Source: Escherichia coli 042 (GTDB taxonomy: Bacteria > Pseudomonadota > Gammaproteobacteria > Enterobacterales > Enterobacteriaceae). From it: a stretch of 64,000 nt of DNA. Under the pieces are notes generated by a model that did no database searches, had not been told where the DNA came from, and saw nothing but the letters and a program-made list of their open reading frames with translations. The stretch lies in NCBI RefSeq assembly GCF_000027125.1, contig NC_017626.1, one strand, 5' to 3'. The translations under genes and the position numbers were made by a program. Shown in pieces: positions 8,293-44,655 of the stretch (positions are counted from its first letter, which is position 1; the number at the start of each line of letters is the position of its first letter).

Positions 8293-9306
8293 TTACAGGT
8301 ACATTCAGTTTCTTTAGTAAATCGGAAGTAAATAAGATACGTAGCACATATCAATATAGGTTAAACGAGATTAAGTTTTAATTATTTCGATTAGGTTTAA
8401 ATTTATGTTTTTTTCCTGATGAGTGTCAATATGTGAACAGAAAAGGAATTCCATGGTTAAGTCAATATTTACAAAAAATGAAAATATTGCTTTTTTGATA
8501 AGAAGAAAAAGACATTCAGTTTCATAAGGTTATTGGCAATATAACGTTCAATTCTTACTTGCATTTTATATTAGCCAGGAACTTTGCCCTGAGGTGTTAG
8601 GAATAGTCTTAATGTGTTGTGTAATGGACTAGTAAAAAAACAAGTTTAAATGATAAGAAATAGAATATAAAACTATCATGAGTCATAATTAAAGATGATT
8701 TGCCAATCAGTAAGGTGTTTTAATGGATTAACATGCCGCACAAAATGGTTATGGGTGTTCATCCCAATAAGTGATGAAAAATTAAACAGGTGTAAGTACG
8801 TCATCTGTCCGGTAAGCCCCCTAAGAGCCAAATTAAGTGAAGTTAAACGAAGACTGCCAGTTGTCACAGGAACGATGGCCTCTTTGCCAGGGCACTGGAT
8901 TCAGTCATCTGTGCGCGTTACTCTAACTGGCACTCGAACGTCGGCGATGGGGTTACCGGTGGATCAGGCCGTTCCTGTGGCGTAAACGTTTTTATGTCAG
9001 TACCAACAGATTTACCACATTTATCATCTTAACAGTTTGAGTGTAAATGCAGGCTGCGTCGCAAAGGGAGGAAACTGAGTGGCGTGTTCAGTCTAAAAGA
9101 GGGTTGATGCCAGCATACAGGGCGAAGCTGGTCAACAAGTCAACATTAAGATAATGGAATATTCGGAGAGAAACGTCAGGCAGTTGACCTTAAATGAAGA
9201 GGAAGATATATCCCCAGGAAAATTAATGCTGGTGTAATAAATACACCAACATTAATCAGGTCTGATTATTAATCAGACAAATATCGTTAATCCGGCGAAT
9301 TATGAA

Positions 9307-9447
9307 TCAACGTTTTTTCTTACGCCCCTGAACGGCCTTAAAACGTGGATTAGATTTACAAATCACATACAGCCGTCCTTTTCGCTTCACAATCTGACAG
9401 TCTGGATGGCGTTCTTTTGCGGTACGCAGAGAGTTAAGGACTTTCAT
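9307..9447 (-). CDS. rpmJ2: Zinc-independent ribosomal protein L36 paralog
   Basis: Manually translated 46-aa [49 protein letters not shown]; its ATG overlaps the rpmE2 stop (ATGA). Below the ORF-track length cutoff. Confidence 0.9.
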
Positions 9448-9710
9448 CACGCCCCCTTTTTCGTGCTAACAAAACGACCAAAACGTTGGGTGAACCGTGC
9501 AACATTTCCTTCTGATGCTACTGTTCTCAGCTTCCCTGTATAGAACGGGTGCGATTTCGAAGAGACATCAATTGTCACGTACGGATACGTTACGCCATCC
9601 AGCTCAATCTCACGGTCTGTTTTGATAGTCGAGCCGATTTTAAAGTACTCATCAACACTGGTGTCATGGAACACCACAGTACGATACTCAGGATGGATAT
9701 TGGGTTTCAT
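9447..9710 (-). CDS. rpmE2: Zinc-independent ribosomal protein L31 paralog
   Basis: ORF 9447..9713 ([19 protein letters not shown]...); conserved L31 type-B N-terminus begins at the second Met. Confidence 0.9.
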
Positions 9711-9721
9711 CATTTTTACCC

Positions 9722-9739
9722 GTTATGTTATAACATAAC
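9722..9739 (-). promoter_or_regulatory. Zur box (zinc uptake regulator operator) upstream of rpmE2-rpmJ2
   Basis: Near-perfect palindrome GTTATGTTATAACATAAC immediately upstream of the rpmE2 start; matches the ATGTTATAA/ATAACAT core of the Zur consensus. Confidence 0.7.
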
Positions 9740-10649
9740 CGTAAAGATACATGCTCATCCGGATCATTTCAACACCCAATCCCTGTGACCATTTGTGGTA
9801 TGTGGAATTTCCTCAACGGGGAAGTCTGGCATTGTTAACAGCCATTGGCTGACGCTCCCATAAACGCCTGGATGAGTGATTGATGATGGTTTCGCTGAGA
9901 GTATGGATTTTTCGAGAATGGAGGTTATCTCCACTTTACTGGCCGATGATTTATCGCAGTATGATTGATTACCTGACAGCGTGTATTCCTCTCCCACGGA
10001 TATAATAATTACTTACAAAAAGGGAGAGGATGCATATTTTAAATATCACTGAAGTGAACAGTTTATTGCCGTTATTAATAGAAATGGAAAAATAAATAGG
10101 CGTATTCTACAATTGCGACAAAAACAACGATATTAATCAGTTTATGACTGATTTGTTGTACTTTATTCTCTTTCATTGGTACTTCCTCGCTTTAAAAAAG
10201 AGTGCACTTCGTAAGTGCCCTTATATAAATAACGAGTTTGGTCAACCAATTTTTTGACATGTATCACAAATTTGAATAGATGTATTACATCAACTATCTT
10301 TTATTGCCCCAACGTCATTGATATATGTCGCCTGAAGTCAGTTCCGGGAATGAGTCTGATCTCAAGACAGGCCCAGTCCTGGCGTTGATTAGCGCTGAGG
10401 AGCATATCGCATCTCATCATAATGTCGTATCTCCTGGGGTGTTATACAAGATATCGTTGTTGGTGACCTGGGAGAGGAATTGAGTTCTATTAAACCGTCA
10501 ACTATGCCGGATACATACTGGATTACACAGCAGGCACGCCTTATGAGAGAACGTGCCGCAGTGACGGGTTAATTATCTGAAAGAATTTGCGAGGCTGTAT
10601 CGGTTACTCATTGGTTTGATAGTTTTACTCTCGGGAGAGTAATAGATAT

Positions 10650-11792
10650 TTAATCCATTAACGGAAACCAGCCAGTTCCTTTCGATGCCTGAATTTGATC
10701 CCATAGTTTATCCGGAATGGTTAATTCAGGAACAAGTTGTGGATTAAGGGTTGTTTGAATTTCATGGCTTCTACCTGATTCAGCTAAAGTCACCCATTCT
10801 GGATTTATCACCAGCCCTTTACCGATCGCAACAAGTGGCAGGCCAGTGGAAATTGCTTCTTGAGCCTGAGACGGTGTGCGTATTTTACCTGCGGCGATTA
10901 CCGGCACTCTGCCTGCAATATGATTTAAAATCAATTCAATAGTTCGGGGGCCATTTGGCGACTCAACAGGGTAGCTATCGTTAATACTGACCAGCGAGGT
11001 ATGTATATACGAAATACCGGATGAAATGAGCCGATCAAGGAGTTTATAAGTATCCTCTATCCGCAGCCCCCCTGTTGCAGATTCTTCAGGAGATATTTTG
11101 TAACCGATGGCAAAGGGCTTTGTCGCATATTCATAGACTACATTTTTTACTTCCTGTAATACGGCCAGCGGGAAGCGCATACGTCCTTCGAGATCTCCTC
11201 CCCATCGGTCATTACGCTGGTTAAATAGAGGGGAGAAGAAATTCTGTAGAAGGAATCCGTGCGCACCATGAAGTTCAATGCCATCAAAACCTGCTTTAAT
11301 CGCCCTTTTTGTGACATCTCCGAATGCTCTAATGGTTTCCTGAATTTCGTTTTCAGTCATTTCCCTGCTTTTTACCACTCTCTTCATAAAGTCACCAGAT
11401 TTTACGCTTGATGCGCTGGCACTAATAACATCGTTATTTGGTACAAGCTCCGGGATGGCTTTATTACCGGCGTGGAAAATCTGCAAAATAGCCGGAGCAC
11501 CGCCACTTTTGGCTGCCGCTGCTAACTTTTCAAGGCTGTTAATGAAACGGTCGTCATACGCGGCAAATTCATGAGTAAACCCAATGCCGTTTGGCGTGAC
11601 ATAGGTACATCCTGTTATTACTAAACCAACATTTTGTGAGCGACGTTTATAAAATTCGAGTTCTTGCTCAGAGATGGTTCCATCAGGATTCGCTGACCAG
11701 GTCGTCATAGGAGCCATAACGATACGATTACGTAGCTTTATTTTTTCTGTCAGCATAAAAGGAGAAAACAATGATGGGTGTTTATTTGTCAT
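10650..11792 (-). CDS. NADH:flavin oxidoreductase, Old Yellow Enzyme family (FMN-dependent ene-reductase)
   Basis: 380-aa ORF with OYE hallmarks (N-terminal ...RIVMAPMTTW..., HGAHGFLL motif); GAGG SD 7 nt upstream of the ATG. Confidence 0.8.
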   Translation of the reverse strand: MTNKHPSLFSPFMLTEKIKLRNRIVMAPMTTWSANPDGTISEQELEFYKRRSQNVGLVITGCTYVTPNGIGFTHEFAAYDDRFINSLEKLAAAAKSGGAPAILQIFHAGNKAIPELVPNNDVISASASSVKSGDFMKRVVKSREMTENEIQETIRAFGDVTKRAIKAGFDGIELHGAHGFLLQNFFSPLFNQRNDRWGGDLEGRMRFPLAVLQEVKNVVYEYATKPFAIGYKISPEESATGGLRIEDTYKLLDRLISSGISYIHTSLVSINDSYPVESPNGPRTIELILNHIAGRVPVIAAGKIRTPSQAQEAISTGLPLVAIGKGLVINPEWVTLAESGRSHEIQTTLNPQLVPELTIPDKLWDQIQASKGTGWFPLMD

Positions 11793-21875: not shown

Positions 21876-21910
21876 TATTAAGAATATGAAAGTAACATTC
21901 TAATAAACAA

Positions 21911-21945
21911 TAATGGCGTTGACATCTTCAACGCCATTATTTATT
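21911..21945. terminator. Bidirectional rho-independent terminator between fdeC and ykgA
   Basis: 8-bp stem GGCGTTGA / TCAACGCC (21915-21922, 21928-21935) with a 5-nt loop, flanked by A/T-rich runs on both sides. Confidence 0.6.
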
Positions 21946-38467: not shown

Positions 38468-41400
38468 ATGAATAAAATATATCGGCTAAAGTGGAACAGG
38501 TCCCGTAACTGTTGGAGCGTCTGCTCGGAGCTGGGGAGTAGAGTAAAAGGAAAAAAGTCCCGGGCTGTTTTAATTAGCGCGATAAGTTTATATTCATCTC
38601 TGGCACTGTCTAAAGATGTCGCTGTAAGTGAAGATTACACAGCTGTATTCGGTAAAGATAACCAGACTATTGATTACCGTATTTCAGTGACCGACAATGC
38701 CAATCTGGTAATCGATGCGACAGATTCTTCTCGTCCACGTCTGACTCTCGCGTCTGGTGGTGGGCTGGATATCACTGGAGGGAAGGTGCATATCAATGGC
38801 TCGCTTAACTTTTTGTTAAAAGGGACGGGGTTTCTGAACGTCGCCAATGCTGGCAGCGAGTTATATGCTGATGATTTATATGAGTCTTACTCTAATATTA
38901 CCCACGATAGAGGCTATTTTAATGTCTCCAACGGCGGCAAAATCCATGTTAAGGGCACCAGCCGTCTGACCTATTTGCAGGGAAATGTCAGCGGTGAAGG
39001 CAGCCAGGTAAATTCTAAAACCTTCTTTATGGGCGTTTACGGCAGTTACGGTGGCAATCAGTATCTGTCAGTTAATAACGGCGGTGAAGTTAATGCCAGT
39101 GAAAAAATTAGCCTAGGCTATTATGATCAAGTCTCCGATACAACACTTGCTGTTTCGGAAGGTGGTAAAATTTATGCGCCGACTATTAGTTTAAGCACCA
39201 ACTCTGAGTTAGCGTTAGGGGCACAGGAAGGAAGTGCTGCGAAGGCAGCAGGGATTATTGATGCCGAAAAAATTGAGTTTGTGTGGGCAAAGACATCCGA
39301 TAAGAAAATCACCTTAAATCACACGGATAAAAACGCGACTATTTCCGCGGATATTGTCAGTGGCAGCGAGGGCCTGGGCTATATCAATGCGCTCAATGGC
39401 ACGACTTACTTAACCGGGGATAACTCCGCCTTTAGCGGTAAAGTCAAAATTGAGCAAAATGGCGCTTTAGGGATCACCCAAAATATAGGTACAGCAGAAA
39501 TCACCAACCGCGGGAAATTACACCTGAAGGCTGACGATAGCATGACCTTTGCCAATAAGATTTCTGGCAACGGTACAATAAGTATCGACAGTGGGACAGT
39601 GACGCTGACTGGCAATAACTATGCATTCAGCGGATATATTGATGTCGCTTCTGGTGCTGTCGCGGTTATTTCTGAAGACAAGAACATCGGCCGTGCAGAA
39701 CTGGATGTTGATGGCAAATTGCAAATTAATGCCAACAAAGATTGGGTATTTGATAACGATCTTGAAGGTAGAGGCATTGTTGAAATAAACATGGGGAATC
39801 ACGAATTCTCCTTCGATGAGTTTGCCTATACAGACTGGTTCCAGGGTTCACTGGCGTTCCAGAACACGACATTTAACCTGGAAAAGAATGCTGAGTTTCT
39901 GCAGAGAGGCGGGATCACTGCGGGTCAGGGAAGCCAGGTAACAGTGGGTAAGGGCGCTCACTCCATTAGCACTTTGGGATTCTCCGGCGGAACGGTTGAT
40001 TTTGGTGCCCTGGCAGCTGGTGCACAGATGACAGAAGGGACAGTCAACGTTAGTAAAACGCTGGATTTGCGTGGCGAGGGTGTGATTCAGGTTTCTGACA
40101 GTGACGTTGTCCGCTCTGTATCTCGTGATATTGACTCTGCGTTATCGCTCACTGAAGTCGATGATGGTAACAGCACCATTAAGTTGGTTGATGCGCAAGG
40201 TGCGGAAGTTCTGGGCGATGCGGGCAATCTGCAATTGCAGGATAAAAATGGACAAATCTTCTCCAGCAGCGCCCAACGTGATATTCAGCAGAATGGGCAA
40301 AAAGCGGCCGTCGGCACTTACGACTATCGTCTGACGAGTGGGGTAAACAATGACGGTCTGTATATCGGTTACGGCCTGACCCAGCTTGAATTGCAGGCTA
40401 CCGACAGTGATGCCCTGGTGCTGAGTGCCAACGGTAAAAGCGAGAATGCCGCCGATCTTAGTGCAAAGATTACCGGCAGTGGTGACCTGGCCTTCAGCAG
40501 CCAGAAAGGTCAGACCGTATCGCTTTCTAACAAAGACAACGACTATACCGGTATTACCGATCTGCGCAGCGGGACGCTTTTGTTGAATAACGATAACGTG
40601 TTGGGTAATACCCATGAACTGCGTCTGGCGGCAGAGACTGAACTGGATATGAATGGTCACAGCCAGATCGTGGGCACGCTCAATGGCAGCGCCGATTCAC
40701 TGCTGAGCTTGAACGGCGGGAGTCTGACGGTTACCAACGGGGGCACTTCAACCGGTTCGTTAACGGGGAGCGGAGAGCTGAATATTCAGGGCGGCACGCT
40801 GGACATCGCGGGCGATAACAGCAACCTGACGGCGAATGTGAACATTGCTAATTCGGCTAATGTCCTGGTAAGTCATGCGCAGGGATTGGGTAGCGCAAAC
40901 GTTGAGAACAACGGTACCCTGGCGTTGAATAATAGCGCTGAAAAAAGAGCGGCTGCGTCTGTGAATTACACCCTGGGCGGCAATCTGACCAACAACGGTA
41001 CGCTGATGACCGGAATGTCAGGACAGCAAGCTGGCAATATGTTAGTGGTGAAGGGGAACTACCACGGTAATAACGGTCAACTAGTAATGAATACGGTACT
41101 GAATGGCGATGACTCAGTAACCGATAAATTGGTTGTCGAGGGCGATACTAGCGGCACGACTGCCGTTACGGTGAATAACGCTGGCGGTACAGGTGCGAAA
41201 ACCCTTAACGGTATCGAACTTATCCATGTTGACGGTAAGTCTGAGGGCGAATTCGTTCAGGCTGGGCGTATCGTTGCGGGGGCATATGACTACACTCTCG
41301 CGCGTGGACAAGGGGCAAATAGTGGTAACTGGTATCTGACCAGCGGCAGTGATTCTCCTGAACTGCAGCCGGAGCCAGACCCGATGCCGAATCCGGAGCC

Positions 41401-43722: not shown

Positions 43723-44655
43723 TTAATTCTCCCGATGCAGTAAATCCTGATAGATCCCCGTTAATATGCCATTTGGCGCAAATTGTTTTTTAATCCACTG
43801 CGTCACCTGACCCGTAGCAGAATGCTGAGTCGCCAGTAACATGCGCGAATCCTGGCGCGGATTATGGATTTGTCGGGTAACCAGCAGGGATTGCGTCATC
43901 GCCTCACGGACCATGTAATCCGGCAAAAACCCAATTCCTTCACCTAAAATCTGGCACTGACATTTGGTGTTGAAATCTGGCACCAGAATCGACTCCTGCC
44001 CATGCAGCAACCAGCCCACTTTTTTATTAATCGTATGCGCGGTGTCCTCCACCATGATATTAGGATAGAGACGCAGTTGGCTTTCGGCGATCGGCTCCGG
44101 CACAAAGGCTAATGGGTGATCCGGGGCGATAGCAAAAGCCCAGCGAATTGCGCCAATCTCCGTGTAATCAATGCCGCCGCCGTCCAGCAGTGTGTCGGGC
44201 GCGCCGATAGCAATATTCGCCTGATTATTAATAATCGCATCCCAGACGCCGTTATACACTTCGGTCGTCACGGTAATCTGGCAGGTTGGAAACTGCTTTT
44301 TCAGTACCTGTAATAAGCGTGCGGTGTGTTTGGGCGTATAAAGCAGTTGGTTAATACAAATGCGCACCCGTGCTTCTATACCCTGCGAAATAGTATCGAT
44401 GCTGCGTTTGATGGCGTGAAAATCATTCAGCAGGTCGGTAGCTTTGCGGAAAAAATAACGCCCGGACTCCGTTAACTCAATGCTTCGGGTACTGCGAGTG
44501 AACAGCACCACATCCAGCCCTGTTTCCATTCGCTTGATGGTGTAGCTAATGGCGGAAGTGGTTAAACCCAACTCTTCTGCGGCTTTACTGAAACTGCCAA
44601 AACGCGCAGCGGTAGTAAATGCCAACAGATTCTCTTCGGTAAAAATTGAGTTCAT
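43723..44655 (-). CDS. yahB: YahB, LysR-family transcriptional regulator
   Basis: 310-aa ORF with N-terminal LysR HTH (FSKAAEELGLTTSAISYTIKRME). Confidence 0.85.
   Translation of the reverse strand: MNSIFTEENLLAFTTAARFGSFSKAAEELGLTTSAISYTIKRMETGLDVVLFTRSTRSIELTESGRYFFRKATDLLNDFHAIKRSIDTISQGIEARVRICINQLLYTPKHTARLLQVLKKQFPTCQITVTTEVYNGVWDAIINNQANIAIGAPDTLLDGGGIDYTEIGAIRWAFAIAPDHPLAFVPEPIAESQLRLYPNIMVEDTAHTINKKVGWLLHGQESILVPDFNTKCQCQILGEGIGFLPDYMVREAMTQSLLVTRQIHNPRQDSRMLLATQHSATGQVTQWIKKQFAPNGILTGIYQDLLHREN

Follow-up and report, generated by a model that had tools for sequence, protein, structure and literature searches.

The closest described system is the ykgMO operon of Escherichia coli K-12, whose operator and promoter were characterised as PL31p by Gilston et al. 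2014 (PMC4219657). In that study, Zur protected about 30 bp of PL31p, bound it as two cooperative dimers, and showed there its highest affinity among the four E. coli Zur operators (Kd-app 0.025e-18 M^2). Repression of K-12 ykgM by Zur reached 560-fold by RT-PCR, while znuC and pliG were repressed merely 7- to 8-fold (PMC4219657). Likewise, a chromosomal K-12 ykgM-lacZ fusion is silent in wild-type cells, and its activity goes up almost 1000-fold when zur is mutated or the chelator TPEN is present (PMC7297116). The ykgMO promoter, TTGAAA-17-TATCTT, is listed among the "constitutive" promoters that are bound by RpoD holoenzyme alone (PMC3946193), and a terminator is drawn for the operon in Fig. 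2A of PMC7297116. Furthermore, L31B represses the expression of rpmE (PMC9825181). Outside Escherichia, Li et al. 2009 (PMC2706843) describe the ykgM-rpmJ2 operon of Yersinia pestis by EMSA, DNase I footprinting, primer extension that mapped the transcript start, and lacZ fusions.

We analysed a stretch of 64,000 nucleotides of DNA, hereafter the window, and we are highly confident that it contains the ykgM-ykgO (rpmE2-rpmJ2) operon of an Escherichia genome together with its Zur operator. This is the already known zinc-starvation switch of E. coli, which an earlier note made on this DNA from its sequence alone had interpreted correctly. Both strands were read, and the parts of the operon (operator, promoter, ykgM and ykgO) all lie on the minus strand. 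In the direction of transcription, the features are the following.

10075-10176, minus strand: ykgR, upstream of ykgM and on the same strand.
9767..9772, minus strand: -35 hexamer TTGAAA of the ykgMO sigma-70 promoter, from a promoter consensus scan.
9744..9749, minus strand: -10 hexamer TATCTT, ending 4 nt upstream of the operator, with a 17-nt spacer from the -35.
9722..9739, no strand assigned: Zur operator GTTATGTTATAACATAAC, a perfect 18-bp inverted repeat in which two GTTAT-N3-ATAAC dimer sites overlap with a shift of 5 bp.
9718..9721, minus strand: Shine-Dalgarno-like GGGT of ykgM, read from the sequence, adjoining the operator without a gap and followed after 7 nt by the annotated ATG.
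9447..9710, minus strand: ykgM / rpmE2, type B (zinc-free) ribosomal protein L31, 87 aa, identical to the K-12 protein.
9452..9458, minus strand: Shine-Dalgarno-like AAGGGGG of ykgO, inside the last ykgM codons and 4 nt before the ykgO ATG.
9307..9447, minus strand: ykgO / rpmJ2, type B ribosomal protein L36, 46 aa, identical to the K-12 protein.
9221..9278, minus strand: two stem-loops (9278-9260 and 9257-9221) downstream of ykgO, the second followed by a short U run, candidate terminator of the operon.

Positions 9200-10000 of the window are 98.5% identical to complete E. coli genomes, in which ykgM, ykgO and ykgL are annotated under the match, and 5,040 of 5,426 E. coli genomes have a place covering at least 80% of this query. 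The gene order ecpA-matA(ecpR)-ykgL-ykgO-ykgM-ykgR is the same as in K-12 and in strain 118UI. For the 81-mer at 9700-9780, we found no identical copy among 5,426 complete E. coli genomes (best match 98.8%), which points to a slightly divergent lineage of Escherichia as the origin of the window.

The neighbourhood differs between strains in several respects. The ykgL gene (9047-9272, plus strand, convergent with ykgO) looks truncated, with an open reading frame of 35 aa (9047-9154) versus 75 aa in K-12, and the ykgL of strain 118UI is annotated as a frameshifted pseudogene. Upstream of ykgR, a 380-aa NADH-dependent flavin oxidoreductase is found on the minus strand at 10650-11792 and beyond; strain 118UI has the flavin oxidoreductase and then an alpha/beta hydrolase and a LysR regulator, and K-12 carries the ykgP and eaeH pseudogenes and IS3 at the oxidoreductase position instead. 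Among the 5,399 places in the E. coli collection that match the ykgL-ykgO-ykgM region, 13 are in records classed as plasmids.

We examined the arrangement of promoter and operator across 80 loci with YkgM relatives, anchored on the Zur box and drawn from Escherichia, Citrobacter, Kluyvera, Enterobacter, Klebsiella, Salmonella, Serratia, Brenneria, Photorhabdus, some Vibrio and Pseudoalteromonas. Of 81 loci, taken from Enterobacterales and, in a few cases, from other gammaproteobacteria, 71 have a TTG-N16-18-TAnnnT promoter whose TAnnnT begins 8-11 nt ahead of the box, counted to its first base. Its position is kept across the loci, while the spacer and the surrounding sequences are not conserved, which indicates that a conserved promoter ends just upstream of the operator. 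From the usual spacing of 6-8 nt after the -10, transcription is predicted to start at about 9737 (9736-9739), inside the operator, giving a predicted leader of about 27 nt (26-29 nt) and placing the operator at about -2 to +16 of this start; in the literature available to us we found no experimentally mapped start for E. coli ykgM.

This arrangement bears on the proposal of the earlier note that promoter and operator overlap or else that the leader is very short. The first half holds, given a -10 hexamer that ends so close to the box and a predicted start within it. A near-leaderless mRNA is not supported, and we rejected the corresponding candidates for a -10 within the operator, TATAAC and TATGTT: only 2 of 76 and 1 of 51 loci have a TTG at a fitting distance from such a TAnnnT hexamer of the box, so that a -35 is missing in nearly all of them, and the upstream promoter is both conserved and published. 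At the other end of the operon, the stem-loops downstream of ykgO fold with -35.9 kcal/mol (z = -4.97).

The same evidence weighs on the possibility that the main promoter is far upstream, for example by read-through from ykgR, and that Zur bound at 9722-9739 stops an elongating polymerase and does not act on initiation. In its favour, ykgR is encoded upstream in the same orientation, and the stretch immediately before the box carries the label "ykgMO operon, 5'-UTR" in Shinhara et al. (PMC3175480). Against this, TTGAAA-17-TATCTT lies directly upstream of the box at a position that, unlike its surroundings, is kept in 71 of 81 loci, the published ykgMO promoter is bound by RNA polymerase holoenzyme alone (PMC3946193), and the start mapped in Y. 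pestis puts the Zur site over the -10 (PMC2706843). We consider such a roadblock very unlikely, and block of initiation at the promoter adjoining the operator is the reading that we retain.

Next, we examined how the operator itself varies. Of the 8 Escherichia sequences compared, 7, E. albertii included, carry the palindrome unchanged, and the remaining one, an E. coli strain, has C13T. In related loci, the core and the half next to the promoter are retained, and the symmetry is often broken in the distal half (e.g. ...TATAACAAAACA), with 1-2 mismatches in 63 of 82 loci.

This pattern helps to judge whether the palindrome could be mainly an RNA element, namely a 5'-terminal leader hairpin that sets mRNA stability or translation, and not a DNA site bound by a protein. 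A full transcript of the palindrome does fold as a 7-bp hairpin beside the ribosome-binding site (9739-9700, -10.2 kcal/mol, z = -3.05). However, a transcript starting at about 9737, as predicted, would lack the first stem pairs, and the frequently broken symmetry of the distal half in relatives fits recognition by a protein and not a conserved stem. Moreover, no Rfam family matches, a scan of 8600-10600 at E <= 5 having returned noise-level matches only, all far below gathering scores, and binding of Zur to the operator DNA is published (PMC4219657). An RNA element therefore appears even less probable than a roadblock, and we treat the palindrome as an operator in DNA.

The palindrome as such carries little statistical weight. 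About 0.3 perfect 18-bp palindromes of any sequence are expected per 64 kb, and at least one was seen in 53 of 200 simulated windows, so that palindromy alone is not significant and we rejected it as an argument on its own. The specific sequence is another matter: GTTATGTTATAACATAAC is the sole perfect palindrome with a half-length of at least 8 in the window, and is unique there when up to 3 mismatches are allowed (0.03 expected). Lowering the half-length to 7 adds just one further perfect palindrome, GATTATTAATAATC at 44223-44236, of a size for which about 4.8 are expected by chance. The significance of the operator comes from its specific sequence, as scored by an independent Zur matrix, from its position directly upstream of ykgM, and from its conservation across 81 loci.

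The Zur matrix was built from the znuC, zinT and pliG operators of K-12 only and made symmetric, the ykgM site being left out. The operator scored 19.6 bits, first in the window and about 6.5 bits clear, the next independent site scoring 12.7 bits. In the null simulations, the maximum per 64 kb was 13.4 +/- 1.9 bits with a largest value of 19.95, and 19.6 was reached by about 1 in 100 simulations. Two other Zur-like sites, at 21889-21912 and 38881-38904, scored 12-13 bits and were set aside as being at the level of the null maximum. Compared with K-12, the window has two substitutions flanking the box, at 9721 and 9741. The A-to-G change at 9721 is private to the window and adjoins the box; through it, the ribosome-binding AGGT becomes GGGT and the matrix score drops to 19.6 bits from 21.5.

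Furthermore, the operator fits all 8 specified positions of RxxxYRxxR*YxxYRxxxY, the Zur motif derived from crystallography (PMC4219657), reading G-TTA-T-G-TT-A*T-AA-C-A-TAA-C. As a scanner, this purine/pyrimidine skeleton holds too little information, with 216 matches in the window, and the leave-out matrix was used instead. Compared with the 23-bp Zur consensus, the operator matches at 15 of 22 positions in two registers 5 bp apart, and these are the two best matches in the window; the two registers follow from the operator being two perfect GTTAT-N3-ATAAC dimer sites with that same offset.

Collectively, these results bear out the Zur operator proposed in the earlier note, since the palindrome is that of K-12 ykgMO, fits the motif exactly and tops an independent matrix; of the checks which that note suggested, the matrix scan thus ranks this site best of the window, and the reporter assay with and without zinc chelator is already published on the identical K-12 operator, with the almost 1000-fold response of ykgM-lacZ (PMC7297116). 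An operator for another regulator of the Fur family such as Fur, or a chance AT-rich palindrome, is effectively refuted: Fur-family boxes are all AT-rich inverted repeats and some 0.3 perfect palindromes of this length are expected by chance in the window, but the best Fur-box match in 9701-9780 reaches only 10 of 19 positions and lies outside the palindrome, the site tops a Zur matrix built from other operators, and the box is conserved upstream of ykgM across genera. Zur binding and zinc-dependent repression at this locus are supported by analogy, through the published K-12 data for the identical operator.

We then considered the distance between the operator and ykgM. In the window as in K-12, ykgM starts with two tandem in-frame codons, ATG ATG (9708-9713, minus strand), while other genera mostly have a single ATG. 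The annotated start is the second ATG (9710-9708), which is the sole one conserved in other genera (MKPNIHP). From the palindrome there are 8 nt, GGGTAAAA, to the first ATG (9713-9711) and 11 nt to the second, in agreement with the distance of about 10 bp given in the earlier note. This short distance is not peculiar to the locus: of 82 loci, 76 have a gap of 10-14 nt between box and ATG. At the position of the GGGT of the window, K-12 and the other aligned E. coli strains have AGGT, and related loci have a ribosome-binding site of the GAGG/AGG type at the same place in the gap. In the sampled loci, such dense packing of promoter, operator, ribosome-binding site and start codon is the norm of the family and not a property of the window alone.

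A similarly tight organisation is found at the junction of the two genes, which reads GCG TGA TGA AAG, with tandem TGA TGA stops (9444-9449, minus strand) that are present in K-12 too. The first TGA (9449-9447) ends ykgM, and base 9447 is common to the ykgO ATG (9447-9445), forming TGATG with an overlap of 1 nt. The K-12 annotation agrees, with ykgO at 312374-312514 and ykgM at 312514-312777, coordinate 312514 belonging to both. An overlap had been claimed before in the form ATGA; the overlap itself is confirmed, and the letters ATGA are present, but their TGA is the second of the tandem stops and not the one that ends ykgM. A GTG at 9450-9448 would make a 4-nt GTGA overlap and is not the annotated start.

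Across the family, 67 of 82 loci have a ykgM-ykgO junction of -4 to +5 nt, an overlap or proximity of the kind expected of a coupled pair, and related loci have GGGG or GAGG before ykgO at the place equivalent to that of AAGGGGG. This geometry suggests that the two genes may be translationally coupled, and the Shine-Dalgarno sequence of ykgO itself would also allow independent initiation.

In loci of Brenneria and Serratia (L075, from Brenneria sp. 4F2, and L079, L082, L083 and L084), the ykgM-ykgO gap is 12-197 nt and ykgO has its own ribosome-binding site of the AGAGGAA type. The tight junction is thus not universal in the order.

The proteins encoded by the two genes are the zinc-free paralogs of L31 and L36 that they had been taken for. 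YkgM (87 aa, MKPNIHPEY...STKKGA) is assigned to type B L31 by NCBIfam NF002462 with 122.9 bits (cutoff 86), and YkgO to type B L36 by NF002021 with 91 bits (cutoff 70). In an alignment with K-12 RpmE, the zinc ligands C16/C18/C37/C40 are replaced by T/V/S/S in YkgM, which has lost the two CxxC-type ligand pairs and contains no cysteine at all, as is the case for 80 of 82 YkgM orthologues. In an alignment with RpmJ, the ligands C11/C14/C27/H33 correspond to H/C/C/F in YkgO, so that 2 of 4 ligands are gone and the C-C-C-H site is disrupted.

From the published K-12 data and the layout described above, we propose the following mechanism. When zinc is sufficient, two Zn-loaded Zur dimers would sit on opposite faces of 9722-9739, one on each GTTAT-N3-ATAAC element. 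Judging from the published size of about 30 bp, protection in this strain would extend over roughly 9716-9745 and reach from the end of the -10 across the transcript start into the first part of the leader. Such protection would bar sigma-70 RNA polymerase from TTGAAA-17-TATCTT, a strong promoter that is independent of activators. As free zinc falls, Zur would leave the operator and a bicistronic mRNA would be made from about 9737 to the stem-loops at 9278-9221, its leader of about 27 nt being largely operator, with the ribosome-binding site after it. L31B would be translated first, from 9710, and ribosomes ending at the UGA at 9449-9447 would already be on the AUG of L36B (9447-9445), which has its own Shine-Dalgarno sequence inside ykgM. 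The zinc-free L31B and L36B then replace the zinc-binding L31 and L36.

The operator may also have a second role. Shinhara et al. 2011 (PMC3175480) described in K-12 a candidate cis-antisense sRNA, ECS017, of 92 nt by reads and with a northern band of about 275 nt, which starts with its 5' end at base 14 of the palindrome, opposite in strand to ykgM, and runs across the -10 and -35 of ykgM. The equivalent in the window is on the plus strand at about 9735-9826 (K-12 312026-312117 in the coordinates of PMC3175480), and a -10-like TATGTT (9724-9729, plus strand) is found 5 nt upstream of its 5' end. The candidate plus-strand promoter, TTGGGT-18-TATGTT, would be weak, and the TGn of the extended -10 of K-12 is CGT in the window. 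For the plus-strand region equivalent to ECS017 we found no fold signal (z = +1.35), and no conservation of the ECS017 region beyond Escherichia was seen in the compared loci. We consider it unlikely that the Zur box is also the core of a weak divergent promoter. Under this hypothesis, if the antisense RNA is real and controlled by Zur, two transcripts that overlap face to face would be gated by a single operator, and the antisense transcription through ykgMp could add to the unusually tight silencing of about 1000-fold.

Taken together, these results describe a textbook case of zinc-responsive ribosome remodelling, for which the operator, the promoter, the repression ratio and the proteins have all been characterised in K-12. 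What is gained here is a clean annotation of the locus in this genome, with the strand stated and the overlap corrected to 1 nt from 4 nt.

Of the known systems, K-12 ykgMO (PL31p, PMC4219657) is the nearest, sharing the 18-bp palindrome, the -35 and -10 hexamers, both proteins, the 1-nt overlap and the neighbourhood. The window differs from it in having TTTACGG for TTTATGG upstream of the box, AACGGGT for AACAGGT downstream of it, with a weaker Shine-Dalgarno match, and a truncated ykgL downstream of the operon. The ykgM-rpmJ2 operon of Y. pestis, as described by Li et al. (PMC2706843), is the same operon in another genus, with the same type of Zur box and a Zur footprint over the -10 of a sigma-70 promoter, and its box is not a perfect 18-bp palindrome. 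The other E. coli Zur operators (znuA/znuC, zinT and pliG) have in common with the ykgM site the core GTnAyrwTATAACAnnnC and the RxxxYRxxR*YxxYRxxxY skeleton; they are imperfect palindromes, whereas the ykgMO site surpasses them all in symmetry and in tightness of binding (PMC4219657).
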